From Candidatus Omnitrophota bacterium (GTDB lineage Bacteria > Omnitrophota > Gorgyraeia > Gygaellales > Profunditerraquicolaceae), in NCBI GenBank assembly GCA_042570405.1, contig JBHPGR010000006.1, positions 1-61,708 on the forward strand: DNA of 61,708 nucleotides. The letters run 5' to 3'. Position 1 is the first letter of the stretch. Each line of letters opens with the position of its first letter. The translations under genes and the position numbers were made by a program. The notes under the pieces are model-generated. The model was not told the DNA's origin. It did not search any database and saw only the letters and a list, made by a program, of their open reading frames with translations. Positions 4,534 to 55,448 of this stretch are shown in pieces.

Positions 4534-4833
4534 GGGCCCTCCCTCGTTGCTGATTCAAATTAGAGTGCAACTCGGGATGGGCTAATGAACTAATAGAGGG
4601 CCCATGGTTCGACTCCGCTCACCATTGGGCTCTGGAAGTTATAGCGGGCCCATAGCTCATACATTAAATTGATAGCGCAGTATGGCTATGGTCCAGCAAC
4701 TAATAGCGGGCCCATAGCTCATACATTAAATTAATAGCGAAGTATGGCTATGGGCTTAGGAAGCAATAGCGGGCCCATAGCTCATACATTAAATTAATAG
4801 CGAAGTATGGCTATGGGCTTAGGAAGTAATAGC
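4534..4833 (+). repeat. Tandem array of five tRNA-Ile-derived hairpin units
   Basis: GGGCCC starts at 4534, 4598, 4646, 4708, 4771 and at the tRNA (4834); last three units carry GGGCCCATAGCTCA, identical to the first 14 nt of the tRNA; each unit is self-complementary. Confidence 0.92.
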
Positions 4834-4905
4834 GGGCCCATAGCTCAGCGGTAGAGCAGGTGACTCATAATCACTTGGTCGGAGGTTCGATCCCCCCTGG
4901 GCCCA
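4834..4905 (+). tRNA. tRNA with CAT anticodon, probably tRNA-Ile2 (lysidine)
   Basis: GGGCCCA/TGGGCCC acceptor, GGTGA-CT-CAT-AA-TCACT anticodon arm, GTTCGAT T loop, no encoded CCA; acceptor sequence is Ile2-like rather than Met-like. Confidence 0.85.
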
Positions 4906-4937
4906 GTTGATAAATTCGTTGAAGGCCAAGGGGTTTA

Positions 4938-5014
4938 GGGCGATTGGCTCAGTTGGTTAGAGCGCCACACTCACATTGTGGAGATCGGAGGTTCGAATCC
5001 TCTATCGCCCACCA
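4938..5014 (+). tRNA. tRNA-Val(CAC)
   Basis: GGGCGAT/ATCGCCC acceptor, CCACA-CT-CAC-AT-TGTGG, GTTCGAAT, ends ACCA. Confidence 0.95.
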
Positions 5015-5027
5015 TTAAAGAAAAAGG

Positions 5028-5756
5028 ATGTCAAATACAGACCTTAAGTCACAGATAAAGAACCTCGTGCAGTTGCAGAAGGTTGATTCTCAGATCCACG
5101 ACCTGAAATACAAAAAGAGCCAGTTTCCCCAGGAGATTGAGGCGATTACCGCTTCCTTTGAGGCAAAGAAGCAGAGTCTGGCCGAGCTTGAGAAGGCGAC
5201 CCTTGACCTGGAGGTCAAGAAGAAGGAGGGGGAGGTGGACCTGGCATCAAAGGAGGAGCAGGCAAAGAAATTTCAGGGGCAACTTTATTCGCTGAAGACC
5301 AACGAAGAGTATAAGACGATGATGCAGCAGATCGAAGGGATTCATGCCGATGCCTCTGTCGTGGAAGATAAGGTCCTGGAGCTGCTTGAAAAAATCGAAG
5401 AATCAAAAAAGGCTATCGTTAAGGAAAGAGAGAGGCTCAAAGAGGAGGAAAAGTTATCTGGCCAAGAGAAGGCTAAGATCGAGGTGCGGATAAAGGAGAT
5501 CGACGGTCAACTGGCGCAACTGGATGCACAGAGAAAACAGCTCTCTCCGGGAGTAGATGCCAAGATCCTTAAACAGTACGAGAGGATCCTTGCAAACCGG
5601 GACGCGCTGGCGATAGTCGATATAAAGGATAACGCTTGTCATGGGTGTAATATGTCCGTGCCGCCGCAGGTGGTAAACTTGATCAGGATGTATGAACGTA
5701 TTGTGACCTGCGAGGTATGCAATAGGATATTATATATAAAGGATGAAGAAGCTTAA
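5028..5756 (+). CDS. Coiled-coil protein with C4 zinc ribbon (DUF164/CT398 family)
   Basis: Long coiled coil followed by CHGC..CEVC; usual neighbour of RNase H. Confidence 0.88.
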   Translation: MSNTDLKSQIKNLVQLQKVDSQIHDLKYKKSQFPQEIEAITASFEAKKQSLAELEKATLDLEVKKKEGEVDLASKEEQAKKFQGQLYSLKTNEEYKTMMQQIEGIHADASVVEDKVLELLEKIEESKKAIVKERERLKEEEKLSGQEKAKIEVRIKEIDGQLAQLDAQRKQLSPGVDAKILKQYERILANRDALAIVDIKDNACHGCNMSVPPQVVNLIRMYERIVTCEVCNRILYIKDEEA

Positions 5757-6141
5757 TATCTACATTGACGGAGCGTCTAAGGGTAACCCCGGTCCGGCAG
5801 GGATCGGGGTGGTGATCTCTTGCGACGGTGAAGTTTTAAAGAACATATCCGTTAATATCGGGATTGCTACGAATAATTTTGCAGAATATACAGCTTTGAT
5901 CTATGCCCTTCAAGAAGCGCTGATCATGAAGGCGGAGGAATTATATATAAAATCCGACAGCTTGCTGCTTTGCAAGCAGATAAACAGAGAATATAAGGTT
6001 AAAAACGTAAATATCATCAGGCTTTATAAGCAGGCGCAGCATTTGATCACGGCCTTTAAGCAGGTAAAGGTCAGCCATATCCGGCGCGAGTTTAACAGCG
6101 GCGCTGATAAACTGGCAAACCAGGCCGTGAAGAAGGCTTGA
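5743..6141 (+). CDS. rnhA: Ribonuclease HI family protein
   Basis: DGASKGNPGPAG, TNNFAEY, DS, N..ADKLAN. Confidence 0.9.
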   Translation: MKKLNIYIDGASKGNPGPAGIGVVISCDGEVLKNISVNIGIATNNFAEYTALIYALQEALIMKAEELYIKSDSLLLCKQINREYKVKNVNIIRLYKQAQHLITAFKQVKVSHIRREFNSGADKLANQAVKKA

Positions 6142-6144
6142 AAT

Positions 6145-6584
6145 TCAGGAGGCAGGCGGAGAGTGGCCGCTCCCCCGCCAATTGGTGAGGGAGAGGAAAG
6201 TCCGGGCTCCACAGGATAAGCGCGCTCTGTAACACAGAGCCTCGCCGCAATTCGTGGCGGGAGGGAAAGTGCCGCAGAGAATAGACTGCCGATAGTCCGC
6301 TACTGCGGACATGGCGATGGTGAAAAGGTAGTGTAAGAGACTACCGTTGGCTGCAGCGATGCGGCTTGCACGGAAAACCCCGCGCGGAGAAAGGCGAAAT
6401 AGTCCCGTCAATCCCATATTTAATGGGAATAAAAGTGGTCCGCTTGAAATCCGGCATTCGCCGGATTGACGGGAGGGTAAGCTGCTTGAGTCCCGGCGGC
6501 AACGTCGGGATCGAGAGAAATGGTCACTGCGGTTGCGGTTAATCGCACCAAGACAGAACCCGGCTTATTCCGCCTGCTTTCTGA
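6145..6584 (+). ncRNA. rnpB: RNase P RNA (bacterial type A)
   Basis: GAGGAAAGTCCGGGCTCC, GAAAGTGCC.CAGA, GGTGAAA, ACAGAACCCGGCTTA; P1 pairing TCAGGAGGCAGGCGGA/TCCGCCTGCTTTCTGA. Confidence 0.96.
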
Positions 6585-6633
6585 TAATAAATATTCAACT
6601 AGCAAAGGTGCTTAATAAGAAAAAGGAGGGGTA

Positions 6634-7389
6634 ATGTCAGGCCATTCAAAATGGAAGACGAATAAATCGAGGAAGAATGCGGCCGATGCCAAGAGGGGGG
6701 CGGCCTTTACTAAGATCATCAAGGAGATAGTGGTCGCCGCACGCGAGGGGGGCGGTAATCCTGAAGTCAACCCCAGGCTGCGCACAGTGATCTCCCGGGC
6801 AAGGGAATTGAATATGCCCAATGATAACGTAAAGACAGCGATCATGCGCGGCACAGGAGAGTTGCCCGGCATTACTTATGAGAGCGTCTCCTACGAGGCC
6901 TACGGACCTGCGGGAGTAGCTATCCTGATAGAGGCGCTTACCGATAATAAAAACCGTACCACAGCAGAGGTACGTAATATCATGTCTAAGAAGGGTGGAA
7001 ACCTTGCCGGGGGAGGTTCGGTCAATTGGATGTTTACCAAAAAGGGATATATCCTGATCGAGAAGAGCCAGATCGGAGAAGACGAGCTGATGACAATCGC
7101 CTTGGATGCCGGCGCCGAGGATTTTAAGGCGGATCAGAAAAACTACGAAATATTCACTTCAGTGCAGGATTTTGAAAAGGTCAAAAAGGCGATCCAGGAT
7201 AAGGGGATCAAGTGTCAGTTCGCAGAATTGACGATGATCCCGTCATCTGTGGTCAAGGTGAGTGGTAATGACGCCAAATCCCTGTTGGGCCTGATCGATA
7301 GCCTTGAGGATCACGATGACGTACAACAGGTCTATGCTAATTTTGATATCCCTGATGAGGTCCTGGAGAAGATGGGCAGCAGCTCATAG
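6634..7389 (+). CDS. yebC: YebC/PmpR family protein
   Basis: MSGHSKW, YEAYGPAG, TDNKNRT, DHDDVQQVYAN. Confidence 0.95.
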   Translation: MSGHSKWKTNKSRKNAADAKRGAAFTKIIKEIVVAAREGGGNPEVNPRLRTVISRARELNMPNDNVKTAIMRGTGELPGITYESVSYEAYGPAGVAILIEALTDNKNRTTAEVRNIMSKKGGNLAGGGSVNWMFTKKGYILIEKSQIGEDELMTIALDAGAEDFKADQKNYEIFTSVQDFEKVKKAIQDKGIKCQFAELTMIPSSVVKVSGNDAKSLLGLIDSLEDHDDVQQVYANFDIPDEVLEKMGSSS

Positions 7390-7392
7390 AAG

Positions 7393-7878
7393 ATGAAGAT
7401 ACTGGGTGTTGATCCTGCCATTGCGATTACAGGTTACGGACTGATCAGCGCGCAGAAAAAAAAGATCTCTTTGATAGAGGCGGGCATAATCAAGACATCT
7501 GCAAGCTATGGCCTTGCCTGCAGGATGGAACGTATTTACACCGGGATCCGCAGATTGATCATCCAGACAAGGCCCGATGTCATTGTGCTTGAAAAGCTGT
7601 ACGCGCATTACCGGCACCCGGCTACTGCATTTCACTTGGGGCATGCGCGGGGAGTGATAGTTTTGGCTTGCGCGCAGGAGAAGGTGGCTTTAATCGAGTA
7701 CGGCGCTACCCGCATCAAGAAGGCTGTCGTTGGCAGGGGCCTTGCTACAAAGTACCAGGTGCAGAGGATGGTCGCCGGGATGATCGGGTTAAAGAGTCTG
7801 CCTAAATATACCGATGTTACGGATGCGCTGGCTTTAGCAATCGCGCATAGCCATATAGTAAGGGCCAAAGAAATATGA
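7393..7878 (+). CDS. ruvC: Holliday junction resolvase
   Basis: ILGVDP..TGYG, GHARGV, IKKAVVG.G.A.K.QV, D..DALALA. Confidence 0.95.
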   Translation: MKILGVDPAIAITGYGLISAQKKKISLIEAGIIKTSASYGLACRMERIYTGIRRLIIQTRPDVIVLEKLYAHYRHPATAFHLGHARGVIVLACAQEKVALIEYGATRIKKAVVGRGLATKYQVQRMVAGMIGLKSLPKYTDVTDALALAIAHSHIVRAKEI

Positions 7879-8504
7879 TCGTAAAGATTTCAGGTAAGGT
7901 CAGGCAAAAAAACGCAAACGCTGTTGTCGTAGAGGTCTCAGGGATCTCTTACGAGGTCCTGCTTCCAACGGCCGTAATGCAGAGACTGCAGGATAAAATT
8001 GCCGGTCAGAGCGATGTCAGCCTGATCACTTATCATTATCTTGCCAGCGAGCCATCGAAGAGCACGCCGGTGCTGATCGGCTTCTTAAGTGAAGTCGAGA
8101 AAGATTTTTTTGAAACATTTATTACGGTATCCGGGATCGGACCGCGCGCAGCCTTAAGGGCATTAAGCCAGCCGATATCACTGATCGCTCATGCGATCGA
8201 TGACGGCAACACGGAATTCTTGAGGTCACTTCCGGGAATAGGCCAGCAGCGGGCAAGGGAGATCGTAGCCAAGCTTCAGAATAAAGTAGGAAGGTTCGGC
8301 TTGATCCGGGATGATAAATTACAGCAGCAGGAGGCCAGGGCCAGCGGTGCCGAGCAGGAGGCGCTGGCGGTTTTACTGCAGCTGCAGTATAAGAAGTCCG
8401 AGGCAGAGGTGATGATCCAGAGAGCGCTAAAAGGAGAAAGGAAAATCGATTCTACGGAAGAGTTACTTAACGAGGTATATAAACAAAAAAAGCATGTCAG
8501 ATAA
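7875..8504 (+). CDS. ruvA: Holliday junction branch-migration protein
   Basis: GISYEV, VSGIGPR and LPGIG HhH motifs, C-terminal ALAVL..L.Y domain. Confidence 0.92.
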   Translation: MIVKISGKVRQKNANAVVVEVSGISYEVLLPTAVMQRLQDKIAGQSDVSLITYHYLASEPSKSTPVLIGFLSEVEKDFFETFITVSGIGPRAALRALSQPISLIAHAIDDGNTEFLRSLPGIGQQRAREIVAKLQNKVGRFGLIRDDKLQQQEARASGAEQEALAVLLQLQYKKSEAEVMIQRALKGERKIDSTEELLNEVYKQKKHVR

Positions 8505-9078
8505 TAACGTTCATCCGGTAATCGAGGCGGTACTTTTTTCCAGCGATAAGCCGGTCACCCTGGAGCAGCTTAAAAATACGCTTGAGTCGATGGCGCCTGA
8601 TGAGATCCGCAGTGCGATCGAACAGTTGATGTTAGAATACGAAAAGACTAACCGGGGGATGCGGATCATTGAGATCGCCGGCGGCTTTCAGATGGTCACA
8701 TCATCCGGAGTTGCACCGTTTTTAAAGAAGTTCTACAAAAAACGCCACGTTGAACGGTTATCAAAACCGGCCCTTGAGACCCTGGCGATCATCGCTTATA
8801 AGCAGCCGTCGACAAAACTTGAGATAGAGGCCTACAGGGGGGTAAACGTCGACGGAGTGATGTATAATCTACTGGATAAGGGGCTGGTGCGTATCTCGGG
8901 TAGAAGGAAAGCGCCAGGTAGGCCTTTTGTATTCTCGACCTCCAGGCAGTTCCTGGAATATTTCGGACTTAAATCATTGGAGGAGCTTCCTAAGATGGAA
9001 GACTTTTCCGCATTGGTCGCAGCAAAGGAGGGGACAGATGAAACTGAAAAATCTGCGCCACCAGATAAACAAGCTTGA
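8494..9078 (+). CDS. scpB: SMC-Scp complex subunit ScpB
   Basis: IEAVLF, LETLAIIAYKQP, RGV, PGRP, FL.YFGL.SLEELP. Confidence 0.95.
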   Translation: MSDNNVHPVIEAVLFSSDKPVTLEQLKNTLESMAPDEIRSAIEQLMLEYEKTNRGMRIIEIAGGFQMVTSSGVAPFLKKFYKKRHVERLSKPALETLAIIAYKQPSTKLEIEAYRGVNVDGVMYNLLDKGLVRISGRRKAPGRPFVFSTSRQFLEYFGLKSLEELPKMEDFSALVAAKEGTDETEKSAPPDKQA

Positions 9079-10099
9079 TAAGAGTATTGTCGGTCTTTTG
9101 AACCAGCGTGCCGGGATCACCCGAAAGATCGGGACTCTTAAGCGAGGCAGCGGAGGAGGCGTCTATTCGCCTGACCGGGAGCAGGATGTATTAAAAAGGA
9201 TCTCTTGCCAGAACCGCGGCCCCTTGACCAGCGATGGCCTGAAGGCGATCTACCGTGAGGTGATGTCATGTTCGCTCTCTGCAGATAAGAATCTCCGGTT
9301 AGCTTACCTAGGCCCCGAGGCGACCTTCACCCACCTGGCAGCGCTAAAGAGGTTTGGTTCACAGGTAGAGTACATGGCTTGCAAGAACATCTCGGATGTC
9401 TTTCTAAAGGTGGCAAGGGATAACGCCGATTACGGAGTCGTCCCGATAGAGAACACGATCGAGGGAGTAGTCAGCCACACGCTGGATATGTTCATCGATT
9501 CTGACCTTAAGATCTGCGCCCAGATTATCCTGGATGTTTCGCACAACCTGATGGCGAACTGTTCAAAAAACAGCATCAAGAGGGTGTATTCCAACCCGCA
9601 TGTCTTCGGGCAGTGCAGGCTCTGGTTGCAGGAGAACCTTCCATGCGCAGAGCTGATAGAGGTCTCAAGTACGACCCGCGCAGCCCAGATCGCCGCTAAA
9701 ACTAAAGCAGCCGCTTGTATCGGGTCTTCTCTGGCTGCCAGAGTCTATAAACTAAAGATCATCGCGCGCGGTATCGAGGATTCTCCGCACAACATAACGC
9801 GCTTCTTAGTAATCGCTAAGATCGATGTCCCGGCAACCGGCGACGACAGGACATCGGTGATGTTCTCGATAAAGGACAGGGTGGGAGCCCTACACGATAT
9901 GCTCTTGCCTTTCAAGAGGAATAAGATCAATCTGACCAAGATCGAATCGAGGCCCTCTAAAAAGAAGGCTTGGGATTATTATTTCTATGTGGATTTTAAG
10001 GGCCACAAGGATAATCCGCGCGTGCGAATAGCGCTGTCGCAGTTGGAGAGTAAATGTAAGTTCTTAAAAGTCCTCGGGTCATACCCGATGGGAGAGTAG
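9038..10099 (+). CDS. pheA: Chorismate mutase/prephenate dehydratase
   Basis: Start moved to MKLKNLR (GGAGG RBS); CM domain, YLGPEATFT, PIENTIEG, TRFLV, INLTKIESRP. Confidence 0.95.
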   Translation: MKLKNLRHQINKLDKSIVGLLNQRAGITRKIGTLKRGSGGGVYSPDREQDVLKRISCQNRGPLTSDGLKAIYREVMSCSLSADKNLRLAYLGPEATFTHLAALKRFGSQVEYMACKNISDVFLKVARDNADYGVVPIENTIEGVVSHTLDMFIDSDLKICAQIILDVSHNLMANCSKNSIKRVYSNPHVFGQCRLWLQENLPCAELIEVSSTTRAAQIAAKTKAAACIGSSLAARVYKLKIIARGIEDSPHNITRFLVIAKIDVPATGDDRTSVMFSIKDRVGALHDMLLPFKRNKINLTKIESRPSKKKAWDYYFYVDFKGHKDNPRVRIALSQLESKCKFLKVLGSYPMGE

Positions 10100-10102
10100 A
10101 GT

Positions 10103-11194
10103 ATGCTTGAGTTTGTCAGGAAGAATATCATCGGTTTAAAGCCTTATATCGCCGGAAAGCCTATAGAGGAGACGAAGAGGGAGTTTCGGCTGAAGCAGGT
10201 GGTAAAACTTGCTTCAAACGAGAACCCGATCGGACCTTCTCCAAAGGCAAAGGTTGCGATCAGAAAGGCATTGTCGGGGCTGAACCGTTATCCGGACAGC
10301 CAGGGGTATTGCCTTAAAAAACGGCTGGCGCGGATGCTTCGCGTCCAGGATTCCAACATCGTCTTAGGCAACGGTTCTGACGAACTGATCGACGTGATCA
10401 TTAAGACCTTTGTCGAGGACGATCAGAATATCGTTACTGCCGATGTGACTTTCCTGGAGTACGCAATCATCTCTCGTGTCAATGACCGCAGGGTGATCAC
10501 GGCGCCCCTGCGCTACTTTAAGTTTGACTTAGAGGCGATAAGGTCGAAGATCGACGCCAAGACCAAGCTTGTGTTTATTGCTAATCCCAATAATCCGACC
10601 GGTACTTATGTCGGCAAGGTTGAGTTGAAGGAGTTCCTCGGCAGCATCCCGAAGAGTGTCTTAGTGGTGCTTGACCAGGCATATGATGCCTTTATTGACG
10701 TCGATGATTTCCCGCTTAATTTGGACTTTCGCAGGTATAATAACCTGATCGTGTTAAAGACTTTCTCCAAGGCCTTTGGCCTGGCGGGATTGCGTATAGG
10801 GTATTGCATCGCCCGCCCGGAGTTTGTCAATTTCATGGAGCGGGTAAGACAGCCATTCAACGTGAATTCACTGGCTCAGAAGGCCGCACTTGCCGCCCTT
10901 GACGATAAAGCCTTCCTCAAAAAAACGCGCAGAGTAATCCTTAAGGGGAAGAGTTACCTTTACCAGCGCCTGGCTTCACTGGGAGTCAGCTATGTGCCCA
11001 GTGTTGCCAATTTTATCTTAGTTGATGTCGGGCGCGACAGCAGAGAAGTCTTTAAGGAGATGCTTAAAGGAGGCGTGATCGTCAGAGATATGCGCCAGTA
11101 CCGGTTGAAGAACTTTATCCGCGTGACTATCGGAACAAAAAAAGAAAATCGGAAGCTGATCAAAGTTTTAAAGAGTGTACTTTTAAAGAAGTAA
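10103..11194 (+). CDS. hisC: Histidinol-phosphate/aromatic aminotransferase
   Basis: [36 protein letters not shown]. Confidence 0.92.
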
Positions 11195-11213
11195 AAAAAG
11201 CGAGGAAAAAAAG

Positions 11214-12230
11214 ATGATCATAGTCCTGAGGCCTGATGCCACAAAAAAACAAATAGAGCATATAACTGAAAAAGTCAGCAAGCTGGGTCTAAAGCCCCAT
11301 GTTTCTAGAGGGGCACAGCGTACGATCATCGGAGTAATCGGCCCTGAAGATGTATTGCGCGTGACGCCGCTTGAAGTCTTCCCGGGCGTTGAAAAGGTGA
11401 TGCCGGTATTAGCTCCCTATAAGCTTGTTTCGCGGGAGTTTAAGCCCAGGGGCTCGGTAATTGACGTAGGCAAGGGCGTCAAGTTCGGCGGAAAGACGAT
11501 CATAGTAATGGGCGGGCCGTGTGCGATAGAAGATCCGCAGACGCTGGGTGAAATAGCAGCTGCAATCAAGAAGGCGGGAGCTGTGGTGTTGCGCGGGGGG
11601 GCCTTTAAGCCGCGCACCTCTCCTTACAGCTTTCAGGGGTTAGGTGAAGAAGGCCTTAAGTATCTTTTCACTGCGGGCAAAGAGCAGGACCTGGTTACCG
11701 TAAGCGAGGTTATGGATACGCGCGACGTAGAGTTAGTCGCCAGGTACGTGGATATCCTGCAGATCGGCGCGCGCAATATGCAGAACTTTGACCTGCTTAA
11801 AGAGGTAGGCTCTACCAGGAAGCCGGTGCTTCTGAAGCGCGGGATGTCTTCAACGATCAAAGAACTGCTGATGTCGGCTGAGTATATCCTCTCCGAGGGT
11901 AACTTTAACGTGATACTTTGCGAACGCGGCATAAGGACCTTTGAAGACCACACGCGAAATACATTAGATGTCAGCGCTATTCCGATAGCAAAGCAGCTTT
12001 CGCATCTTCCGATCATCGCCGACCCCAGCCACGCTGCCGGTAAATGGGGATTGGTTGCGCCGCTTTCAATGGCGGCAGTAGCTGCCGGGGCAGACGGGCT
12101 GATCATCGAGGTGCATACGCACCCGGAAGACGCTGCCTCTGACGGAGCACAATCATTATATCCGGAGAATTTTGCCACTTTAATGCAGGAGCTGAAGAGT
12201 TTATCAAAGGTTATAGGCAGGCAGATCTGA
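11214..12230 (+). CDS. aroF: DAHP synthase (type I-beta, N-terminal regulatory domain)
   Basis: [36 protein letters not shown]. Confidence 0.95.
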
Positions 12231-30498: not shown

Positions 30499-31002
30499 AT
30501 GGCTTTTAAGAAAAAGGCGGATGAAAAAATACTGGATGTGGATGCAGCGATGCAGGGGTCCCTTAATTTTAAGGATCCGGTGAACCTGCGGATAAACGGG
30601 AAGTTCGAGGGTACCCTTGAGACAAAGGGGAACTTGACCGTGGGCTCTACCGCTACGGTTCTGGCAGATATTATCGGCGATAATATCGTGATCGGCGGCA
30701 GGGTGAAGGGTAAGGTTACAGCCAAAGAGAGGCTGACGCTTCTTCCTACGGCGATCATCGAAGGTAATATCTTCCCGGCAAAATTGAATGTCGCAGAAGG
30801 CGCGATATTCGAGGGCAAATGCACGATGCTTCACGATTTTCTGACCTCAGAGGAGTTATCCCGGTACCTTGATGTCGATCTGAATTCGATCATGGACTGG
30901 GCTAATTCCGGGAAAGTCCCTGCTTTAAAGGAAGGCGAGGACTGGAGGTTTGAAAGAAAGGCGATCGATTCCTGGGTCGCGACCGGCAAGGTAAAGAAGT
31001 AA
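30499..31002 (+). CDS. Bactofilin domain fused to a C-terminal excisionase-like HTH
   Basis: G.L.F...LRING.FEG...I.G.V.G.V.A..GAIFEG repeats, then FLT.EE..RYL.......WA..GKVPA.K.G..WRF....ID.W. Confidence 0.82.
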   Translation: MAFKKKADEKILDVDAAMQGSLNFKDPVNLRINGKFEGTLETKGNLTVGSTATVLADIIGDNIVIGGRVKGKVTAKERLTLLPTAIIEGNIFPAKLNVAEGAIFEGKCTMLHDFLTSEELSRYLDVDLNSIMDWANSGKVPALKEGEDWRFERKAIDSWVATGKVKK

Positions 31003-31030
31003 GCCCACCGATCAATAGAACGGCTTAAAA

Positions 31031-33805: not shown

Positions 33806-33809
33806 AGAT

Positions 33810-47171: not shown

Positions 47172-47189
47172 TTGACAATTTATTAGTTT

Positions 47190-47263
47190 GGCGGCGTAGC
47201 TCAGCCTGATAGAGCAATCGGCTCATACCCGACAGGTCACTGGTTTAAATCCAGTCGCCGCCA
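47190..47263 (+). tRNA. tRNA-Met(CAT), elongator-like
   Basis: GGCGGCG/CGCCGCC acceptor, TCGG-CT-CAT-AC-CCGA; atypical D loop (GA) and T loop (TTTAAAT). Confidence 0.85.
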
Positions 47264-47282
47264 TAAACTTGTAAGCGACGCA

Positions 47283-47386
47283 ATCCTGAGGAGACGAAGG
47301 ACCTCTCGACGCCATTAGATCTCTAACTAATCTTTACCGGAGATCTAATCCCGAGTAACCAGCTATTGATCGCCTGTTACGAGGGA
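47283..47386. repeat. Cluster of three REP-like hairpins downstream of tRNA-Met
   Basis: TCCTGAG..CGAAGGA (47284-47301); ATTAGATCTC-16 nt-GAGATCTAAT (47314-47349); ATCCCGAGTAAC-16 nt-GTTACGAGGGA (47348-47386). Confidence 0.7.
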
Positions 47387-47406
47387 CAAAACCCAAGGAG
47401 AATGTT

Positions 47407-48172: not shown

Positions 48173-48177
48173 GCCCA

Positions 48178-49152
48178 GTGTTTGCGGAAAAAGTAAAAGC
48201 TACAATAAAAAATTACAGGCTTTTTAAAAGGGGTGAGAAGGTCGTGGTCGGTGTTTCAGGCGGCCCTGACTCGACGAGCCTGCTTTACGTGCTGCATGGA
48301 CTAAAGAGCAGCTTTGGCCTTAAATTACACGTTGCACATCTTAATCATATGCTGCGGAAGAATTCAGGAGATGATGAAAAGTTCGTAGCCTGTCTGGCTG
48401 CGAAGCTTAAACTTCCGGTCACCTGCGCAAGGGTCAATCTTAAATCAATCCCCAAAAAGGGTTCACTTGAGGAGATCGCCCGTAATGCCCGGCTGGCTTT
48501 CCTGTTTAAGGTCGCACGAGATATAAAGACCGACAAGATCGCCTTAGGCCACAACCTGGATGACCGCGCAGAGACTGTGCTGATGCGTATCCTGCGCGGG
48601 TGCGGCCTCTACGGACTTAGCGGGATCATTCCGGTCAGGGATATCCGCGGATACAAGATCGTGCGCCCACTCCTGGAAGTCACCCGCAAAGAGGTGGAGG
48701 GATACCTTAAAAAGAGGAAGATCAAGCCAAGGCTCGACGAGAGCAATTTAGATGATACTTTTTTTAGAAACAGGATCAGAAACCGGCTGCTCCCGCTCCT
48801 TGAAAAAGATTACAACCGGAATATCCGCAGGGTCCTGGCCACTACCGCTGAAACCGCAGGTTATGATTACGAATATCTCACCCGCTGCGCAGGCAGATCG
48901 CTTAATGGATCCGGGAAAAAGCTTTCGCTAAAGATGATCTCCGGGGCTCACCCTGCAATGCGCAGGCTGCTGCTGAGGATGATCATCGCCAGGGTAAAGG
49001 GAGACTTGCGCAGGATCGAATTCCGCCATATCCAGGAGCTTGAAGAGCTGATCTTTAACCGCCCCACAGGTTCTGTTGTCGACCTTCCGAAAGGTATTTC
49101 AGCAGTCAAGAAGAAGAAACACCTCTCCTTTAGCAAGCCTCAGGATCCCTAA
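48178..49152 (+). CDS. tilS: tRNA(Ile)-lysidine synthase
   Basis: SGGPDS, H.NH.LR, GHN.DD.AET, RPLL, D.SN, RNRIR. Confidence 0.95.
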   Translation: MFAEKVKATIKNYRLFKRGEKVVVGVSGGPDSTSLLYVLHGLKSSFGLKLHVAHLNHMLRKNSGDDEKFVACLAAKLKLPVTCARVNLKSIPKKGSLEEIARNARLAFLFKVARDIKTDKIALGHNLDDRAETVLMRILRGCGLYGLSGIIPVRDIRGYKIVRPLLEVTRKEVEGYLKKRKIKPRLDESNLDDTFFRNRIRNRLLPLLEKDYNRNIRRVLATTAETAGYDYEYLTRCAGRSLNGSGKKLSLKMISGAHPAMRRLLLRMIIARVKGDLRRIEFRHIQELEELIFNRPTGSVVDLPKGISAVKKKKHLSFSKPQDP

Positions 49153-49159
49153 TAAATAC

Positions 49160-49188
49160 TTGATTTCGCAACTGTTTAGATTTATAAT
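49160..49188 (+). promoter_or_regulatory. Candidate ftsH promoter
   Basis: TTGATT-17 nt-TATAAT. Confidence 0.6.
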
Positions 49189-49211
49189 AAGGTCTCTAAA
49201 AGAGGGAAAAA

Positions 49212-51077
49212 ATGCCTAATAAAAATGTTCCTAAGTCCAAAAAGAACAACATGTTCAAACGATTTCCTTTCGGTTGGGTATTCGCAATAGTAATCTTCTA
49301 TCTTTTGGTCAGTTCGCTTAATGTCTCTCTTACCGGCGTCCCTAAAGAGTTGGCATACAGCGAGTTCTATCATCTTTTAAAGGATAACCCCGGACAGATA
49401 CGCTCCGTGACAAAGACTGAGACCATCCTCCAGGTAGAGCTTGCGGATGATCTGCGCTACTTTGTAAATATCCCCGATGACGACAAGGATCTGTTGAGCC
49501 TGATGCGGGAGAACTTGAGCCGCTTTGAGGTCAAGCCGGCGCGGACATTCCTGGCTAACCTGTTCTTCTCGATAGGGCCGGTGGTCTTGTTGATATTCTT
49601 CTGGTGGCTGATGATGTCGCGCGGACAGCAGATGGGTAACAAGATCATGGGGTTTGGAAAGCTTAAGCCTAAGATCCACAGCGAAAAAGACGGCAAGAAA
49701 GTGACATTTAATGATGCCGCCGGGGTAGACGAGGCAAAGGAAGAACTAAGCGAGATCATCGAGTTTCTTAAGGATCCGAAGAGGTTTCAACGGCTGGGAG
49801 GGAAGATCCCTAAGGGGGTCTTACTGGTGGGCCCGCCGGGGACCGGCAAGACTCTTTTAGCGCGCGCAGTTGCAGGAGAAGCAAGTGTCCCGTTTTACAG
49901 CCTCTCCGGTTCTGATTTTGTTGAGATGTTTGTTGGAGTAGGCGCCAGCCGGGTAAGAGACCTGTTCGAACAGGGCAGGCGCGCGGCAAAGACCTCTGGA
50001 AAGGGCGCGATCATATTTATTGACGAGATCGACGCAGTAGGACGCCTTCGTTTTTCAGGTATCGGCGGCGGTCATGACGAACGCGAGCAGACGCTGAATG
50101 CCCTGCTGGTTGAAATGGACGGGTTTAACACCGGAGAGGGGTTGATACTGATCGCTGCGACTAACCGGCCGGATACCCTGGATCCTGCACTTCTGCGCCC
50201 CGGAAGATTTGACAGGACTATCGTAATCCACCTGCCTGATATCAAGGGAAGAGAAGAGATACTTAAGGTCCACGTGCGTAATATCACTCTTGACCCAAAG
50301 GTAGACCTGAAGGCGATAGCGCGGCAGACGTCTTTATTCTCCGGAGCAGATATCGCTAATCTCTGCAATGAAGCCGCTCTTTTAGCAGCCAGGAAGAATA
50401 AGAGCGCGGTAGAGCAGGATGATCTTGAGTCTGCGATCGAAAGAGTGATCATGGGCCCGGAGAAGAAAAGCAGGATTATGTCTAAGCGCGATAAAGAACT
50501 GACTGCTTTTCATGAAGCGGGACATGCGATACTCTCGCTGCTTATCTCAGAGGTCGACCCGATGACTAAGGTGTCGATCATCCCCAGGGGGATGGCTGGT
50601 GGATACACCCTGATCCCGCCTCGAGAAGATAAAAAGTATCCTTCAAAGAAAGAGCTACTGGCAGAAATTACTGTGGCTCTGGGCGGCAGGGTTTCCGAAG
50701 AGATAAACTTCGGCGACATTACAACCGGCGCTTCACAAGACCTTAAGATGACGACTCACTTTGCAAGAAAGATGGTCTGTGATTTCGGTATGAGCCAGCG
50801 CATGGGGAATATCACCCTGGGTAATCGTCATGGCCCTGTATTCCTCGGGAGAGACCTGGTTGAAGAAAAAAACTACAGTGAAGAAACCGCCAAGATTATA
50901 GACCAGGAGGTAAAATCGATCATAGACAGTTGCTACCAGAGGGCAAAACAACTGATCGAAGCAAACAAAGACAAAATAAAACTTCTTGTAAAAGTACTGA
51001 TTGAGAAGGAAGTGTTAAGCGTAAGCGAAGTCAGGCAGCTGCTTGGCTTCCCGGAAGATAAGCAGCACGCCTCTTAA
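49212..51077 (+). CDS. ftsH: ATP-dependent zinc metalloprotease
   Basis: Two TMs, [25 protein letters not shown]. Confidence 0.98.
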
Positions 51078-51083
51078 TGGTGG

Positions 51084-51938
51084 ATGGATAGACACGGCTT
51101 TACGCTGGATCTTGGCAGGTACAAACTAAAGCTGAGCGAGCGCAGAAGCCGGATAATGGGGATCCTTAACCTCACCCCTGACTCCTTTAGCGGCGACGGG
51201 ATGTATCCGGCGCCTGTAAGCCGGATAGTGGACCGCGCGCAAAGGATGGTAGGGGAGGGCGCCGATATTCTGGATATCGGCGGGGAATCAAGCCGTCCGG
51301 GCGCAATGGCGGTGCCTCTTAAGGAAGAACTGAAGAGGACGATCCCTGCGATCAGGGCCTTGAGTAAAAAGGTAAAAGTCCCGCTATCAATAGACACCTG
51401 CAAGCCGGAAGTAGCAAGGGCTGCTCTGGAAAATGGCGCCGTGATCGTAAACGATATTTTGGGTTTTAGAAACCCCAAAATGGCCAGGTTGGCAGCCAGG
51501 AAGAAGGCGGCGGTTGTGATCATGCATATGAAGGGGATGCCGCGCACGATGCAAAGGAATCCCTCTTATAAGTGCCTGATCAAAGAAATAGCGGGGTTCC
51601 TGGCTGATGCTATAAAGTCTGCTATCGAACAGGGCATCGACAGAAATAAAATCATCATCGATCCCGGCATAGGTTTCGGCAAGACCCAAGAGCATAACTT
51701 AGAGATAATCAAAAAACTCGAGAGTTTTAAATCGTTGGGCAGGCCGATTCTTGTCGGTCCGTCCAGAAAGTCGTTTATCGGTAAAGTATTAAAGACTGCG
51801 CCCCAAGAGAGGCTCTTCGGGACGGTCTCCGTAAGTGTTGTCGCGGTAAAAAACGGCGCCGGGATCGTCAGGACACACGACGTCAAAGAGGTCAGGCAGG
51901 CCCTGAAGATGCTGGATGCACTGAACAGGACAAAATGA
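51084..51938 (+). CDS. folP: Dihydropteroate synthase
   Basis: MGILNLTPDSFS, DIGGESSRPG, DPGIGFGK, SRKSF, RTHDV. Confidence 0.96.
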   Translation: MDRHGFTLDLGRYKLKLSERRSRIMGILNLTPDSFSGDGMYPAPVSRIVDRAQRMVGEGADILDIGGESSRPGAMAVPLKEELKRTIPAIRALSKKVKVPLSIDTCKPEVARAALENGAVIVNDILGFRNPKMARLAARKKAAVVIMHMKGMPRTMQRNPSYKCLIKEIAGFLADAIKSAIEQGIDRNKIIIDPGIGFGKTQEHNLEIIKKLESFKSLGRPILVGPSRKSFIGKVLKTAPQERLFGTVSVSVVAVKNGAGIVRTHDVKEVRQALKMLDALNRTK

Positions 51939-52714
51939 TGAATATTGCAGATCTGCTCTTTCTCTGGAAACCCCTGGTCGAAGTAACCATACTCTGGTTT
52001 GTTATTTACCACATCATGCTTTTCTTCGAGGGGACGCGCGCGGTATCAGTGCTGCGCGGAATAGTAGTCCTGATCGTTGCGTTTTTACTCTTTCAGATAC
52101 TGGGTTTGCACATCCTTGACTGGATGCTGACCAAGATATTCGCAATCTCGGTAATCGCGCTCCTGATCATCTTTCATCCCGAGATCAGACAGGGGCTGTC
52201 CAGGCTTGGTAGACAGCGTTATCTTTTCGGCGCGGCTTACCTTGGGCAGGAAGAGCTGGATTACGTGCTCAAGCAGGTGACCGATGCCGTTGATCAGCTT
52301 TCCAAAAATAAAGTCGGGGCGCTGATCGCAATAGAAAAGAGCGAGCCGTTAAATTCTTACGTTGAGAGCGGGGTAAAGGTAGATTCTCTCGTTTCTTCGG
52401 AGCTGATCCAGACGATCTTTACGCCCAACAGCATGCTTCATGACGGTGGCTTGATCTTACAGCACGACCGCATCGTTGCCGCGGGATGCCTTTTTCCTTT
52501 AACGAGTAATCCTTATCTAAGCAGGATCTACGGCACACGGCACCGCGCTGCGCTGGGCTTAAGCGAAGAGACGGATGCGATCATAGTCATCGTCTCGGAA
52601 GAGCGGCGGGAAATCTCCCTGGTATATCAGGGAAAGCTTGAAAAAGATTTAAAACGCGAGGACATATTCAATAAGGTCAAGGAGATCATCAAAACTAAAA
52701 AGAAGAATGACTAA
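51935..52714 (+). CDS. cdaA: Membrane diadenylate cyclase
   Basis: Three TMs, F.PEIR..L, LHDGG, GTRHRAA, VSEE. Confidence 0.93.
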   Translation: MMNIADLLFLWKPLVEVTILWFVIYHIMLFFEGTRAVSVLRGIVVLIVAFLLFQILGLHILDWMLTKIFAISVIALLIIFHPEIRQGLSRLGRQRYLFGAAYLGQEELDYVLKQVTDAVDQLSKNKVGALIAIEKSEPLNSYVESGVKVDSLVSSELIQTIFTPNSMLHDGGLILQHDRIVAAGCLFPLTSNPYLSRIYGTRHRAALGLSEETDAIIVIVSEERREISLVYQGKLEKDLKREDIFNKVKEIIKTKKKND

Positions 52715-52847
52715 AAAGAAACCGGATATAAAAAGTATTTTCTTGCATTTTTTCACCCATCATCCCTGGCTTAAGTTCATCTCACTGGTTCTGGCTGTGA
52801 TCGTCTGGTTTTACGTCAGGGGAGAGATCAGCCGCTTTAATTATTGA
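52707..52847 (+). CDS. 46-aa membrane peptide resembling the CdaR N-terminal anchor (absent from the ORF track)
   Basis: MTKKKPDIKSIFLHFFTHHPWLKFISLVLAVIVWFYVRGEISRFNY*; overlaps the cdaA stop and ends 3 nt before pdxJ. Confidence 0.7.
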   Translation: MTKKKPDIKSIFLHFFTHHPWLKFISLVLAVIVWFYVRGEISRFNY

Positions 52848-52850
52848 CCG

Positions 52851-53570
52851 ATGCCGCTACTCGGAGTAAACATCGACCATGTTGCGACCCTGCGGCAGGC
52901 GCGCAAGGGTAAAGTGCCTGAGCCGGTTGCCGCTGCTTGTATCTGCGAGTCCGCCGGAGCTGATTCCATTGTTGTACACTTACGCCAAGACCGCCGGCAC
53001 ATCAACGATAAAGACGTTTATGGGTTAAGGGAGGCGGTTAAAACCAGGTTAAACCTGGAGATGTCGACATATCCGGAGATCGTGGATATTGCCTGTGCGG
53101 TAAAACCTAATCAGGCAACACTGGTGCCGGAGAAGAGGCAGGAGCTGACAACGGAGGGTGGCCTTAACGTGGTATCAAACCTTGCGAAGATCAAAGATGT
53201 CGCGTCGAGGCTGAAGCAGAATGGTGTAACCGTAAGCCTTTTTATAGACCCTCAAGAAGAACAGATAGATGCTTCCCTGAAGGCCGGCGTAGATATGATC
53301 GAACTGCACACCGGACGCTACGCCGATGCTGCCGGAAAAAGTGAAGAGGATAAATATTTCAGAGAGATCGAGTCAGCGTTAAATTACGCATTGGGTAAGG
53401 GGATGACCGTGAATGCCGGGCATGGCCTGGATTATTCAAATACTGCGCGCATCGCCGCAATAGTGGGGCTAGAAGAGCTTAATATAGGTTATTCCATTGT
53501 ATGCAGGGCTGTTTTTACAGGTCTTGAGCGCGCCGTCAAAGAGATGAAGAAGCTTACAGAGCGGACATGA
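52851..53570 (+). CDS. pdxJ: Pyridoxine 5'-phosphate synthase
   Basis: LGVNIDHVATLRQAR, HLR.DRRHI, TTEGG, ELHTG, NAGHGL. Confidence 0.97.
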   Translation: MPLLGVNIDHVATLRQARKGKVPEPVAAACICESAGADSIVVHLRQDRRHINDKDVYGLREAVKTRLNLEMSTYPEIVDIACAVKPNQATLVPEKRQELTTEGGLNVVSNLAKIKDVASRLKQNGVTVSLFIDPQEEQIDASLKAGVDMIELHTGRYADAAGKSEEDKYFREIESALNYALGKGMTVNAGHGLDYSNTARIAAIVGLEELNIGYSIVCRAVFTGLERAVKEMKKLTERT

Positions 53571-53923
53571 TCATTGGAACGGGAGTCGACATTACCGAAG
53601 TAAGGCGCCTGCGTCATGCGGTAGAAAAGTGGGGCGAAGAATTCCTGGAGCGCATCTTTACCAAAAGTGAACTTAAGAACGCAAAAACCAGAGGCAGTCT
53701 CTACCAACATCTTGCCGGAAGATTTGCCGCCAAAGAAGCGGTCTTTAAGGCGCTGGGGGATAGACACCTTAACTGGAAGGATGTCGAAATACTGAATGAC
53801 CGGGATGGTAAGCCGGTTTGCGTTGTCTCCAACAGTAAAGAAAAAAGAATCGACGTGCAAATTTCCATCTCCCACGTAAAGACCTATGCGGTTGCCAACG
53901 CGATTATTACAGAGAAACGCTAA
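53567..53923 (+). CDS. acpS: Holo-ACP synthase
   Basis: G.GVDI, LAGRFAAKEA..KA, GKP, ISISH. Confidence 0.95.
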   Translation: MIIGTGVDITEVRRLRHAVEKWGEEFLERIFTKSELKNAKTRGSLYQHLAGRFAAKEAVFKALGDRHLNWKDVEILNDRDGKPVCVVSNSKEKRIDVQISISHVKTYAVANAIITEKR

Positions 53924-54752
53924 GTCGCATAAAGGCCACTTCGGGCATCTTTTCGCAATAGCCGGTTCAGCAAGATTCTCGGGGGCAGCGGCTCTTTGCG
54001 CGGAGGCAGGTCTTCGCTGCGGCGCAGGGCTTGTGACCCTGGGGATACCAAAAAGCCTAAACAGTTCTTTGATAAAGATTAAGCCTCTTGAGGTGATGAC
54101 CCTGCCGCTTCAGGAAACGCCTGACAAGAGTTTAAGCCTATCGGCCCTGAAGAGGATCAAGGGTTTTGTTAAGAAGGGACTTATACTTGTTATCGGGCCG
54201 GGCTTAGGCAGGAACGGATCAACGCAGCAGCTTGTGCGCAGGATGATTTCAGAGATACGCTCCCCCATGGTGATCGATGCCGACGGGTTAAACGCTTTAG
54301 TAGGTCATCTAGAGCTTTTACGAAATAACGAAACAACGAAAAAGCGAGAAACGGTCTTAACTCCCCACCCCGGTGAAATGTCGAGGCTGACCGGAGCGAG
54401 CACTAAGGCAGTGGCGAAGAACAGAAGAAAAGCCGCAAAGAAGCTGGCGCGCGATTACAGGGTTACGGTTGTTTTAAAGGGGCACAATACGGTAGTCGCT
54501 GATTGCCGTGGTAATTTATACGTCAATAAGACCGGGAATCCCGGGATGGCCAAAGGCGGAAGCGGAGATGTACTGGCCGGAATGATCGGTGCATTTTTGG
54601 GGCAGGGCTTGAAGGCTTTTGCTGCGGCAAAGTATGCGGTTTACTTGCACGGCCTCGCCGGCGACCTGGCGGCAAAAAAGAAGACTCAGGTCGGGATGAT
54701 CGCAACAGATATAATCAAAGAAATACCTGCGGCGATCAGGAAGTGTTCTTAA
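53886..54752 (+). CDS. nnrD: ADP-dependent NAD(P)H-hydrate dehydratase
   Basis: HKG.FG, GPGLG, DADGLN, TPHPGE, LKG..T, GGSGDVLAG. Confidence 0.93.
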   Translation: MRLPTRLLQRNAKSHKGHFGHLFAIAGSARFSGAAALCAEAGLRCGAGLVTLGIPKSLNSSLIKIKPLEVMTLPLQETPDKSLSLSALKRIKGFVKKGLILVIGPGLGRNGSTQQLVRRMISEIRSPMVIDADGLNALVGHLELLRNNETTKKRETVLTPHPGEMSRLTGASTKAVAKNRRKAAKKLARDYRVTVVLKGHNTVVADCRGNLYVNKTGNPGMAKGGSGDVLAGMIGAFLGQGLKAFAAAKYAVYLHGLAGDLAAKKKTQVGMIATDIIKEIPAAIRKCS

Positions 54753-54766
54753 AATTAGGGGAGTTT

Positions 54767-54842
54767 GCCGGCGTAGCTCAGTTGGTAGAGCAGCGGTTTT
54801 GTAAACCGCGGGTCGGGGGTTCGATCCCTCTCGCCGGCTCCA
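54767..54842 (+). tRNA. tRNA-Thr(TGT)
   Basis: GCCGGCG/CGCCGGC acceptor, GCGGT-TT-TGT-AA-ACCGC, ends TCCA. Confidence 0.95.
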
Positions 54843-54858
54843 GAAAAAGAGATGTTGT

Positions 54859-54944
54859 GGGCAGGTACCCAAGTGGCCAAAGGGGACAGACTGTAAATCT
54901 GTTGCGCTTGCGCTTCAGAGGTTCGAATCCTCTCCTGCCCACCA
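54859..54944 (+). tRNA. tRNA-Tyr(GTA)
   Basis: GGGCAGG/CCTGCCC acceptor, ACAGA-CT-GTA-AA-TCTGT, long variable arm, ends ACCA. Confidence 0.95.
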
Positions 54945-54982
54945 GCTTTTGTTTCGCAAAAGCGCAGTCCCGAAAAGTAATA

Positions 54983-55219
54983 ATGCAGGAAAAGAAGGGA
55001 TTCAGTTTAGTCTATTCAACTCCGAACTCCGCGCAGGTAGCGATCATTAAATCTATTCTGATCGGTACCGATATCCCCTTCTTTGTAACTAATGAGAATT
55101 TTCACAACCTTTACGGAAGCGCAAACGGGCTTACGGCGATGGGGATCATGGTCGCAAGCGAAAGGTTGGAGGAAGCCAAGGAATTACTGGGTAGTTTTAT
55201 TGATCCTAAGGCAAAATAG
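54983..55219 (+). CDS. DUF2007-like small protein
   Basis: Start moved to MQEKK; A.IIKSIL...DIP.F..NE...I.V.....EEAKELL pattern. Confidence 0.7.
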   Translation: MQEKKGFSLVYSTPNSAQVAIIKSILIGTDIPFFVTNENFHNLYGSANGLTAMGIMVASERLEEAKELLGSFIDPKAK

Positions 55220-55225
55220 CAATCT

Positions 55226-55448
55226 GCGGGCATAGCACAGCGGCAGTGCAGTAGCCTTCTCCCGCTACGATATTGATTGATGCGGGGTTTCGCCTTAAGG
55301 TATGATATACGAAGGCTCAACAAGCTACCAAGAGAAGGGGGATTTGCGGGAGTAGTTCAGTGGTAGAACAATAGCCTTCTCCCGCTTCGGTATTGATTGA
55401 TGCGGGATTTCGCCTCTAAGTGTAATATGCGAAGGCTCAACAAGCTAT
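55226..55448 (+). repeat. Two tandem tRNA-Gly 5' halves, each with a 61-nt insert in the anticodon
   Basis: 55226-55259 identical to tRNA-Gly nt 1-34; inserts at 55260-55320 and 55380-55440; both resume CAAGCTA and then lack T arm and 3' acceptor. Confidence 0.88.

Follow-up and report, generated by a model that had tools for sequence, protein, structure and literature searches.

Partial tRNA Gene Copies Interrupted by a Two-Hairpin Module in an Omnitrophota Contig: Possible Products of a tRNA-Gene-Targeting GIY-YIG Cassette

Why should tandem hairpins stand just upstream of two tRNA genes in a bacterial chromosome? The question is raised by a stretch of 61,708 nucleotides from Candidatus Omnitrophota bacterium (contig JBHPGR010000006.1 of assembly GCA_042570405.1, positions 1 to 61,708; hereafter the window), which carries two arrays of repeated units, one upstream of a tRNA gene with the anticodon CAU (the Ile-type array) and one upstream of tRNA-Gly(UCC). 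What a preliminary description of the hairpins overlooked is that the Ile-type and Gly hairpins all sit within incomplete 5′ duplicates of the tRNA gene next to them, 14 nt long in three units and 34 nt long in two. The Gly hairpins belong to a conserved module of two hairpins, here called M, that recurs in the loops of tRNA fragments throughout the bacterial family. The explanation we favor, with a confidence that stops a little short of even, is that a selfish, tRNA-gene-targeting cassette encoding a GIY-YIG nuclease gave rise to the units at the DNA level, the units in the window being relatives that carry no open reading frame (ORF). It draws on the anatomy of the units, the family-wide distribution of M and its covariation, its tie to tRNA loops, and a partial co-location with GIY-YIG genes. 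The genome (G000) is 65% complete, with 1.27 Mb in 66 contigs, of which the window is C6; below, other G numbers are genomes of relatives, L numbers are relatives' loci, and C numbers are contigs.

The Gly array consists of two units of about 117 nt each on the forward strand, followed by an intact tRNA-Gly(UCC) gene of the allele that we call type B (55461-55534). Unit 1 opens with a copy of nucleotides 1-34 of that gene (55226-55259, 34 of 34 identical), continues with a copy of M (M1, 55260-55320; 49.6 bits, E = 8.6e-13), and closes with nucleotides 35-43, which by direct reading complete the anticodon loop and supply the 3′ strand of its stem (55321-55329). Unit 2 is built from a different allele, type A: nucleotides 1-34 (55346-55379), a second copy of M (M2, 55380-55440, with its loop at 55386-55401; 50.8 bits, E = 3.8e-13), and nucleotides 35-45 (55441-55451). 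In neither unit does a T arm follow. Within M1 the order is hairpin 1 (HP1, 55260-55287, which contains the loop at 55266-55281), TTTCGCC, hairpin 2 (HP2), and GGCTCAA. Since the 61-nt insert falls between tRNA nucleotides 34 and 35, M occupies the anticodon loop of the Gly copies, and its excision restores a 7-nt loop, CTTC/CAA, the slash marking the point of insertion. Promoters within the units are represented by a single 9/12 site, in M1; the count of 2 for the region shows no excess over shuffled sequence (0.8±1.0).

The two units differ by paired changes in the D and anticodon stems. Type A is the allele of most relatives examined (L009, L011-L014, L019), and the intact gene of the window departs from it by paired changes in the acceptor, D, and anticodon stems, with the usual allele persisting in the window only as the capped 5′ copy at 55346-55379. 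Genome G205 resembles the window, with allele B in the intact gene and allele A in the capped copy; G149 shows the reverse, an intact A gene with a degenerate B copy upstream. At this Thr-Tyr-Gly locus, seven of the nine relatives shown have no extra Gly copy and one (L010) has one; unrelated ORFs are found there at L015 and L017. As a separate matter, a 78-aa DUF2007 ORF (54983-55219) lies between tRNA-Tyr and the Gly array in the window; its place is taken by merely 8-130 nt in six relatives, L010 holding its partial Gly copy there, and by unrelated ORFs in two. Following tRNA-Tyr, L017 (1727-1830, in G002) and L019 (1584-1680, in G015) also carry a two-hairpin motif with the repeated sequence AGCGAGCG, whose stems covary and which is kept across two genera.

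How widely is M distributed, and what holds it constant? The consensus is TCCCGC(C)-loop-(G)GCGGGR, a YTT linker, an HP2 that starts with CGCC, and the 3′ end GGCTCAA, about 50-75 nt in all; both Gly copies (55260-55320 and 55380-55440) belong to the family so defined. What is conserved is the stem TCCCGC/GCGGGA together with the tail YTTCGCC and the terminal GGCTCAA; the loop is variable, at 3-31 nt. This is the reverse of the variable stems around a conserved 16-17-nt loop first proposed. GGGAYTTCGCC occurs six times in G000, in every case at a distance of 47-178 nt from a tRNA gene. The exact pattern of M, of which a reversed control gave no match, is present in 21 of 200 sampled genomes of the order by the total recorded, and only in the window's family by the recorded split, which reads 20 of 169 there and 0 of 31 elsewhere. 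In G000 a covariance model of M, R1, gives six matches of 46-51 bits, all in loops of tRNA fragments, and weak matches at tRNA-Lys, at tRNA-Met (C3), and upstream of glmS. By our own count 52 of 150 family genomes have matches at E≤1e-6, and a single genome can hold up to 27 matches. Across a 151-genome sample of the phylum, R1 matches at E≤1e-4 occur in 15, those above 40 bits being confined to the window's family. Weaker relatives appear in three other families of the class, some of them flanked by direct repeats of tRNA ends; the largest other family has none (0/47).

Across 30 loci examined, M is found almost always within a loop of an incomplete tRNA copy that has an intact tRNA gene as its neighbor. 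The host is the T-loop in copies of tRNA-Trp, -Pro, -Met, -Leu, and -Arg; the anticodon loop in those of tRNA-Gly, -Glu, and -Gln; and the D-loop in those of tRNA-Arg and -Gln. Copies above 40 bits that were read occupy T-, anticodon-, or D-loops of such fragments, with one ambiguous exception. In the cases read, removal of M returns the host loop to 7 nt. Partial self-copies adjoin 8 of the 38 tRNA genes of G000 when these are compared with the genome by BLAST, and M led to two further such loci, Arg-UCG and Gln-UUG. The helices of M covary as well. An alignment of 23 copies supports two helices. In it the HP2 pair 45-66 is AU in 7 copies, GC in 6, CG in 3, and UA in 2, and the covariation score of 0.156 (0.071 in shuffles) was reached by none of 500 shuffled alignments; HP1 is invariant in that alignment by construction of the search pattern. 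An independent model-aligned set, whose alignment leans towards the model, scores 0.201 against 0.094, with six pairs altered on both sides and with paired changes of CG to UA in HP1.

Several observations on sequences like M stand apart from these results. Module-like 3′ ends (AAGGTGCTCAATG) overlap the start codon of glmS in two genomes and of rplF in one (G000:C26:7103-7141; L078; L088), and AAGGTGCTCAATG resembles a ribosome-binding site plus spacer. Larger units that end in a 3′ tRNA copy occur downstream of tRNA-Trp (G000:C7:32172-32400) and of tRNA-Gln(CUG) (C10:9850-10185); they measure about 215 and 169 nt, the latter being present twice, and they share the structured sequence GGGGTGACAG...CGCCAGAGGGG...CCCTATGGGGAG, which has no Rfam match at E≤1.

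The Ile-type array likewise repeats the 5′ end of its tRNA. Three units, all on the forward strand, precede an intact tRNA(CAU) gene (4834-4905), which from its resemblance is probably tRNA-Ile2. With starts at 4646, 4708, and 4771 they have a period of 63 nt, and each opens with tRNA nucleotides 1-14; after the loop comes an inverted copy of nucleotides 3-11, giving a hairpin of 14-16 bp. The suggestion that the stem mirrors adjacent tRNA sequence thus stands, the mirrored sequence being the local tRNA 5′ end. Unit 1 (4646-4694) has a 17-nt loop at 4663-4679 and folds at -21.1 kcal/mol (z = -2.4); unit 2 (4708-4757), with its loop at 4725-4741, folds at -23.4 kcal/mol (z = -3.7); unit 3 (4771-4820, loop 4788-4804) is identical in sequence to unit 2. 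Ahead of them lies a hairpin that we call unit 0 (4598-4632, forward strand), whose 5′ strand begins like the tRNA (GGGCCCA) and whose loop resembles a T-loop. A homologue of unit 0 with one compensatory pair change stands 5′ of the same tRNA in G021 (L022), a member of a different family. A promoter-like site of the tRNA(CAU)-tRNA-Val operon, TTGCCA-17-TATTAT, is found on the forward strand at 4472-4500 (10/12 matches), and the arrangement TTGCCA...TATxxT recurs 5′ of the orthologous tRNA in relatives L023 and L028; from the position of the site, the entire array of Ile-type hairpins lies in the transcribed leader.

Integration into tRNA genes classically leaves direct repeats of tRNA ends, and the units could in principle be passive debris: att-site duplications left by tRNA-targeting integrases, then shortened and multiplied by slippage, with the hairpins incidental. 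The surroundings of tRNA(CAU) in relatives lend this some weight. In G003 the orthologous tRNA(CAU) is preceded, at a distance of about 100 nt, by the end of a tyrosine-recombinase gene, and 6.9 kb off there is a 38-nt copy of the tRNA 5′ end (C11, L026); this abutting recombinase indicates that integrative elements appear to use the 5′ half of tRNA(CAU). Copies of that half, 37-39 nt long and 0.7-10 kb from the intact gene across the four genomes, are also present in G012 (C3), G020 (C75), and G028 (C35). We nevertheless think debris of this kind quite unlikely as the source of the arrays. The units are only 63-170 nt long; at many tRNAs and in many genera it is within the loop that the same M is found, and not next to the repeat; its helices covary; and the only two recombinase genes of XerC/D size in G000 are on other contigs, neither near the arrays. 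Simple Campbell integration with crossover in the loop was rejected on two counts, because it would not place M inside the loop and because it predicts mismatched T-stems at tRNA-Arg(UCG) that are not seen. Compared with attL/attR repeats, then, the units share direct repeats of a tRNA end beside an intact gene, but 60-170 nt separate these repeats, with no integrase or ORF between them; the module is inside an arm loop; and identical units stand in tandem.

If the units are not integration scars, which enzyme might have made them? The preliminary description found no candidate in the window, and we likewise find none; it proposed enzymes of the HUH/RAYT and GIY-YIG types for study, and of these the GIY-YIG link gains support, whereas a search for Y1_Tnp (PF01797) gives no match in the 65%-complete G000. 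Small GIY-YIG ORFs are present in 95 of 100 family genomes; among the 150 matches listed, the open frames are mostly of 80-130 aa, a bare catalytic domain. G000 has two. One encodes 80 aa (C20:143-385; Pfam GIY-YIG 70.6 bits, residues 3-74). Upstream of it are a 15-nt near-copy of the tRNA-His 5′ end and hairpins, and downstream are two 99-nt repeats, whose last 50 nt recur without change at the end of contig C39 that leads directly into tRNA-His. Judged from this overlap, C20 and C39 probably join, which would place the ORF within a unit at tRNA-His. The second ORF, of 100 aa (in the region G000:C4:9366-10249), is preceded, about 500 nt upstream, by a truncated copy of its own N-terminus, and a TCCCGCC...GGCGGGA hairpin comes after it; the contig has no tRNA gene.

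A GIY-YIG ORF lies inside a unit at L054, L143, L154, and L155, and probably at C20/C39 of G000; the units of the window have none. At L143 and L155 the order is tRNA-Glu nucleotides 1-13, a double TCCCGC-type hairpin in the D-loop, the GIY-YIG ORF, and an intact tRNA-Glu gene. At L154 the ORF is flanked by an intact tRNA(CAU) on one side and by a 21-nt copy of that tRNA's 3′ end on the other, just ahead of tRNA-Val, in the same operon that carries the Ile-type array of the window. A GIY-YIG start codon follows 17 nt after the end of the top-scoring module overall (L054, in G119; 69.8 bits), and at least eight module/GIY-YIG pairs within 300 nt are found among the matches listed. Hairpins of the form CCCGC...GCGGG number 10 per 29.5 kb within 400 nt of GIY-YIG ORFs and 3 per 55.8 kb farther away, about a six-fold difference. 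A co-oriented tRNA gene lies within 600 nt at 7 of the 30 best small GIY-YIG loci, against one or two (about 1.3 of 30) by a rough chance estimate, and clades of the GIY-YIG tree track the neighboring tRNA (Glu, 98/89; three upstream of tRNA-His, 92/84; a Gln pair, 99/90). Between the GIY-YIG ORF and tRNA-His at L149 (G031:C8) there is, in addition, a further small ORF in which Cys-rich and HNH-like motifs are visible by eye.

We return to the cassette with a possible sequence of events in mind. A complete cassette would consist of a minimal GIY-YIG gene, the hairpin module, and a replacement copy of the part of the tRNA that it displaces. Nuclease and hairpin together would enter a tRNA gene at an arm loop, the nuclease presumably cutting either the tRNA gene or hairpin DNA and repair then copying the cassette in. 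The tRNA gene would stay intact and functional because the cassette brings the replacement part, and the displaced part would persist next to it as a fragment that the module caps or interrupts. Later the ORF would decay, leaving ORF-less units, although the direction of this derivation is our supposition; the units of the window would be degenerate or non-autonomous relatives of the nuclease cassette. Tandem arrays could arise through repeated invasion or through unequal crossing-over between tRNA repeats. A bolder form of the proposal, which we offer as a doubtful possibility, is that catalytic-domain-only GIY-YIG nucleases that recognize a folded DNA module and the cloverleaf arms of tRNA genes constitute a new class of mobile element. 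Such elements might home into tRNA-gene loops with a self-repairing tRNA fragment, and might have left hundreds of ORF-less modules across Omnitrophota and perhaps in other small-genome phyla.

A number of findings weigh against the cassette and should be set beside those that suggest it. No GIY-YIG gene is present in the window or beside either array, and the Ile-type units carry no M, with no R1 match at E≤1. The count of R1 matches at E≤0.01, in 115 of 150 family genomes, is inflated because weak matches include ordinary terminators (L024), and some copies of M are distant from tRNA genes (L087-L089, L098, L099, L103). Co-location is partial from the side of the nuclease too: 23 of the 30 best GIY-YIG loci have no tRNA gene within 600 nt, only 3 or 4 of the 30 have an R1 match, and tblastn finds a GIY-YIG homologue at 1 of the 61 loci examined, 30 of which are module loci. 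With so few loci shared, M and the GIY-YIG genes could merely occupy the same tolerant intergenic DNA. The clades that track particular tRNAs may reflect vertical inheritance at the locus and not target choice, and proteins of 80-130 aa with no DNA-binding domain are unlike known homing enzymes.

Do the units act as DNA, or as RNA? The occurrence of both orientations had been taken to favor a role at the DNA level, and the orientation of M agrees with this. M follows the local GC skew at 19 of 25 relatives' loci and in 5 of the 6 copies in G000; the antisense remainder is nearly all at tRNA-Gln, in several genera. Control of orientation by the replication strand was rejected, M running against the local skew in the other 6 of 25 and 1 of 6. 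Whether an orthologous site is filled or empty differs between genera, as at the Thr-Tyr-Gly locus and upstream of tRNA(CAU), where the 63-nt array is seen in none of the nine relatives with a readable flank, one of which holds only a unit-0-like hairpin. Orientation, patchy filling, and the allele swaps at tRNA-Gly favor an element that acts on DNA and is prone to turnover.

These data must be weighed against the alternative that the units are functional structured RNAs in pre-tRNA leaders and trailers, mimics of tRNA ends that control processing, folding, stability, or termination. Such a role would suit the position of the Ile-type array downstream of the promoter-like site of its operon, the covariation of both helices of M, and the fact that M is co-oriented with the tRNA gene in 19 of 25 cases. 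Between the congeners L081 and L085, moreover, M differs at about 4 of 52 positions and the spacer at about 12 of 44 (counted by eye). An RNA role keeps some probability because M is better conserved than its flanks and because a unit-0-like hairpin, with its compensatory change, is kept in another family; the presence of that hairpin in the tRNA(CAU) leader across two families suggests an RNA role there and so counts against a purely DNA-level account. For the units as a whole we regard the functional-RNA explanation as unlikely. The conserved strand is antisense to the tRNA gene at 6 of 25 relatives' loci and in 1 of the 6 copies in G000, the HP1 loop of the window is inverted relative to that of its relatives, presence at orthologous loci is patchy and copy number varies between loci, and copies also occur in non-tRNA spacers. 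Nor do the units match Rfam. In the window only tRNA and RNase P RNA reach the gathering threshold, nothing relevant appears at E≤5 within 4400-5100 or 54700-55600, and the inserts at seven other G000 loci are likewise without a match; known RNA families (ribozymes, riboswitches, T-boxes, small RNAs) were ruled out on this basis.

What, then, of the loop with the core ATYAATA, which had been proposed as the conserved element of a single hairpin family? That model held that a small loop cassette acquires locally templated stems, or that the hairpins display a protein-binding site. The listed hairpins are all present on direct reading and are concentrated at tRNA genes, with the stems CATAC/GTATG (Ile-type), TAAGCC/GGCTTA (around 31006-31021), 10 bp (47324-47339), the 5-bp GTAAC/GTTAC (47360-47375), and CCCGC/GCGGG (Gly). 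They do not form one family, however: the one at 31 kb is not a member, membership of those at 47 kb is not supported, with no R1 match at E≤1 at either place, and the Ile-type units have no M. Parts of the loop argument hold. The Ile-type loop and that of the second Gly unit are alike despite differing stems and opposite strands, a likeness reached by none of 2000 shuffles (21 of 2000 for the first Gly unit), and other genera have related loops, CTAATCAATAGCGG and CTAATTAATAGAAG, in Gly/Glu-type modules. As the model would have it, the Ile-type stem repeats the tRNA 5′ end in inverted form. The window contains 599 perfect hairpins with a stem of at least 4 bp and a loop of 16-17 nt, compared with 501±23 in dinucleotide shuffles; 6 of them carry ATYAATA on either strand (shuffles 1.7±1.4, maximum 7), as do 6 of 174 with a stem of at least 5 bp (shuffles 0.53±0.74, maximum 4). 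The core is thus enriched in such loops, but the loops at 4663 and 47324 lack it, and the six hairpins come down to four independent loci, those of the Ile-type and Gly arrays being tandem copies.

The core is found in the HP1 loop of only 4 of 46 distinct modules, two forward and two, those of the window, in reverse (shuffled loops 0.26±0.5), where it marks a sub-group of M in the anticodon loops of Gly and Glu copies; the loop length of 3-31 nt fits a fixed cassette poorly, and GAT[CT]AATAG occurs 32 times genome-wide against 22.6 expected. A source in the tRNA genes themselves is close at hand. The motif [ATG]ATAG lies in the 20 nt before 12 of 38 tRNA genes (1.64±1.25 in random 20-mers), and ATAGC, which is also present near the 5′ end of several other G000 tRNAs, makes up nucleotides 7-11 of tRNA(CAU) in the window. 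The core overlaps both this 5′-flank motif and the ATAGC of the tRNA itself, so that it is explained by shared descent from tRNA sequence; on the simplest view, the Ile-type and Gly loops were built from the 5′ sequence of tRNA genes and its flank. We consider the loop-cassette model very unlikely.

The hairpins at 31 kb and 47 kb also speak against that model. The one at 31 kb (31000-31027, forward strand) is a non-member with a 6-bp stem that overlaps a stop codon in a 28-nt spacer; its fold is weak (z = -0.5), and it is absent from all seven orthologous spacers, which are 3-72 nt long and unrelated in sequence. The two in the trailer of tRNA-Met (47189-47264) span 47314-47380 on the forward strand, in a region that folds with z = -2.5 (47265-47400), and their membership is not supported. 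The loop at 47324 resembles no other on the list. The loops at 31 kb and 47.36 kb do have CGATCAATAG in common as had been noted, a likeness that 17 of 2000 shuffles reach before any correction for 21 comparisons. Likeness to relatives ceases within about 20 nt past the tRNA-Met 3′ end. The trailers of relatives hold other hairpins and then a partial 3′ copy, one of them with an M-like insert in its T-loop copy.

The system closest to the proposed cassette in its enzyme is SegB of phage T4, a GIY-YIG gene among tRNA genes whose product cuts DNA without the tRNA region and so promotes the inheritance or amplification of that region, according to PMC2330249 and PMC13096335. The GIY-YIG genes of relatives' units likewise sit at tRNA genes. 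They differ in encoding proteins of 80-130 aa, a bare catalytic domain, on a bacterial chromosome, in units that carry partial tRNA copies and a hairpin module and that mostly have no ORF. SegB-type enzymes are larger and have a DNA-binding part. The window itself is chromosomal, since it encodes DnaG, RpoD, LepA, FtsH, and RNase P RNA (6152-6581), along with RACo, a two-partner secretion pair, and seven tRNA genes. A phage origin was rejected because of these chromosomal genes and because megablast of 4000-12000 against a phage collection gave zero matches.

Other parallels concern the module. REP, BIME, and REPIN sequences are short dispersed hairpin repeats associated with RAYT transposases, and IS1397 inserts into the loops of REP hairpins. 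M resembles them as a short, dispersed, intergenic hairpin repeat with conserved stems and variable loops, and insertion into loops thus has a precedent; unlike them, it combines two different hairpins with conserved single-stranded tails and is hosted by loops of tRNA fragments, and the 65%-complete G000 has no Y1/RAYT match. Miniature inverted-repeat transposable elements (MITEs), such as Correia elements, are small multicopy non-coding elements that are probably served by an enzyme encoded elsewhere. M too is small, non-coding, and present in many copies per genome, but it lacks terminal inverted repeats, its ends being TCCCGC... and ...GGCTCAA, and target-site duplication is absent, since removal of M restores the host loop exactly. 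Ends of the IS200/IS605 type were rejected: the two hairpins of M differ from each other, and HP1 directly adjoins the left end. Inspection by eye shows no resemblance of the ends of M to integron attC cores (RYYYAAC / GTTRRRY), a comparison made with no search for IntI. In fungal mitochondria, endonuclease genes reportedly insert at the end of a gene together with a replacement end and leave the displaced end behind as a fragment. The cassette would be similar in bringing a replacement piece and leaving the old one as a truncated copy; the hosts there are protein-coding organelle genes, with no hairpin module. Endonuclease-linked displaced gene ends are not documented in the available portion of PMC4162613. 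In the literature searched, at the level of titles and abstracts and including YhbQ/GIY-YIG, we found no published description of the units or of M.

The units are a little-known kind of selfish or recombining element, common in this uncultured bacterial group, in which the genomes of relatives are small (0.7-2.7 Mb). If the cassette explanation is right, the tRNA genes of bacteria with reduced genomes are recurrently attacked by a very small nuclease-plus-hairpin element that replaces tRNA alleles, builds tandem leaders and trailers, and leaves a recognizable module behind. Such attack would account for the way in which assemblies break at tRNA loci and tRNA gene callers are confused by them. 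It would also provide a minimal structure-guided nuclease for study and would make R1 a marker of turnover at tRNA loci. Even without the nuclease link, M is a covarying two-hairpin element in tRNA-arm loops, present in more than one-third of a bacterial family and not described in the literature searched.

A few further features of G000 lie near tRNA genes. A repeat of about 60 nt occurs at C2:60640-60700, C26:6755-6815, and C30:8030-8090, located 100-280 nt upstream of tRNA-Leu, tRNA-Glu, and tRNA-Phe; its stem, GGTTCGAGGCTCTC / GAGAGCCGAGAACC, encloses a CCCGCC-GAAG-GCGGG hairpin. The same three tRNA genes and tRNA-Pro(UGG) have in common a GCTATAG(C/T)GA(A/G)CGAC-like leader directly before position +1. 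A Group I intron match with a score of 48.7 bits, against a gathering score of 50, follows a tRNA 5′ half at C9:17591-17787 (L007, 92-288, minus strand).

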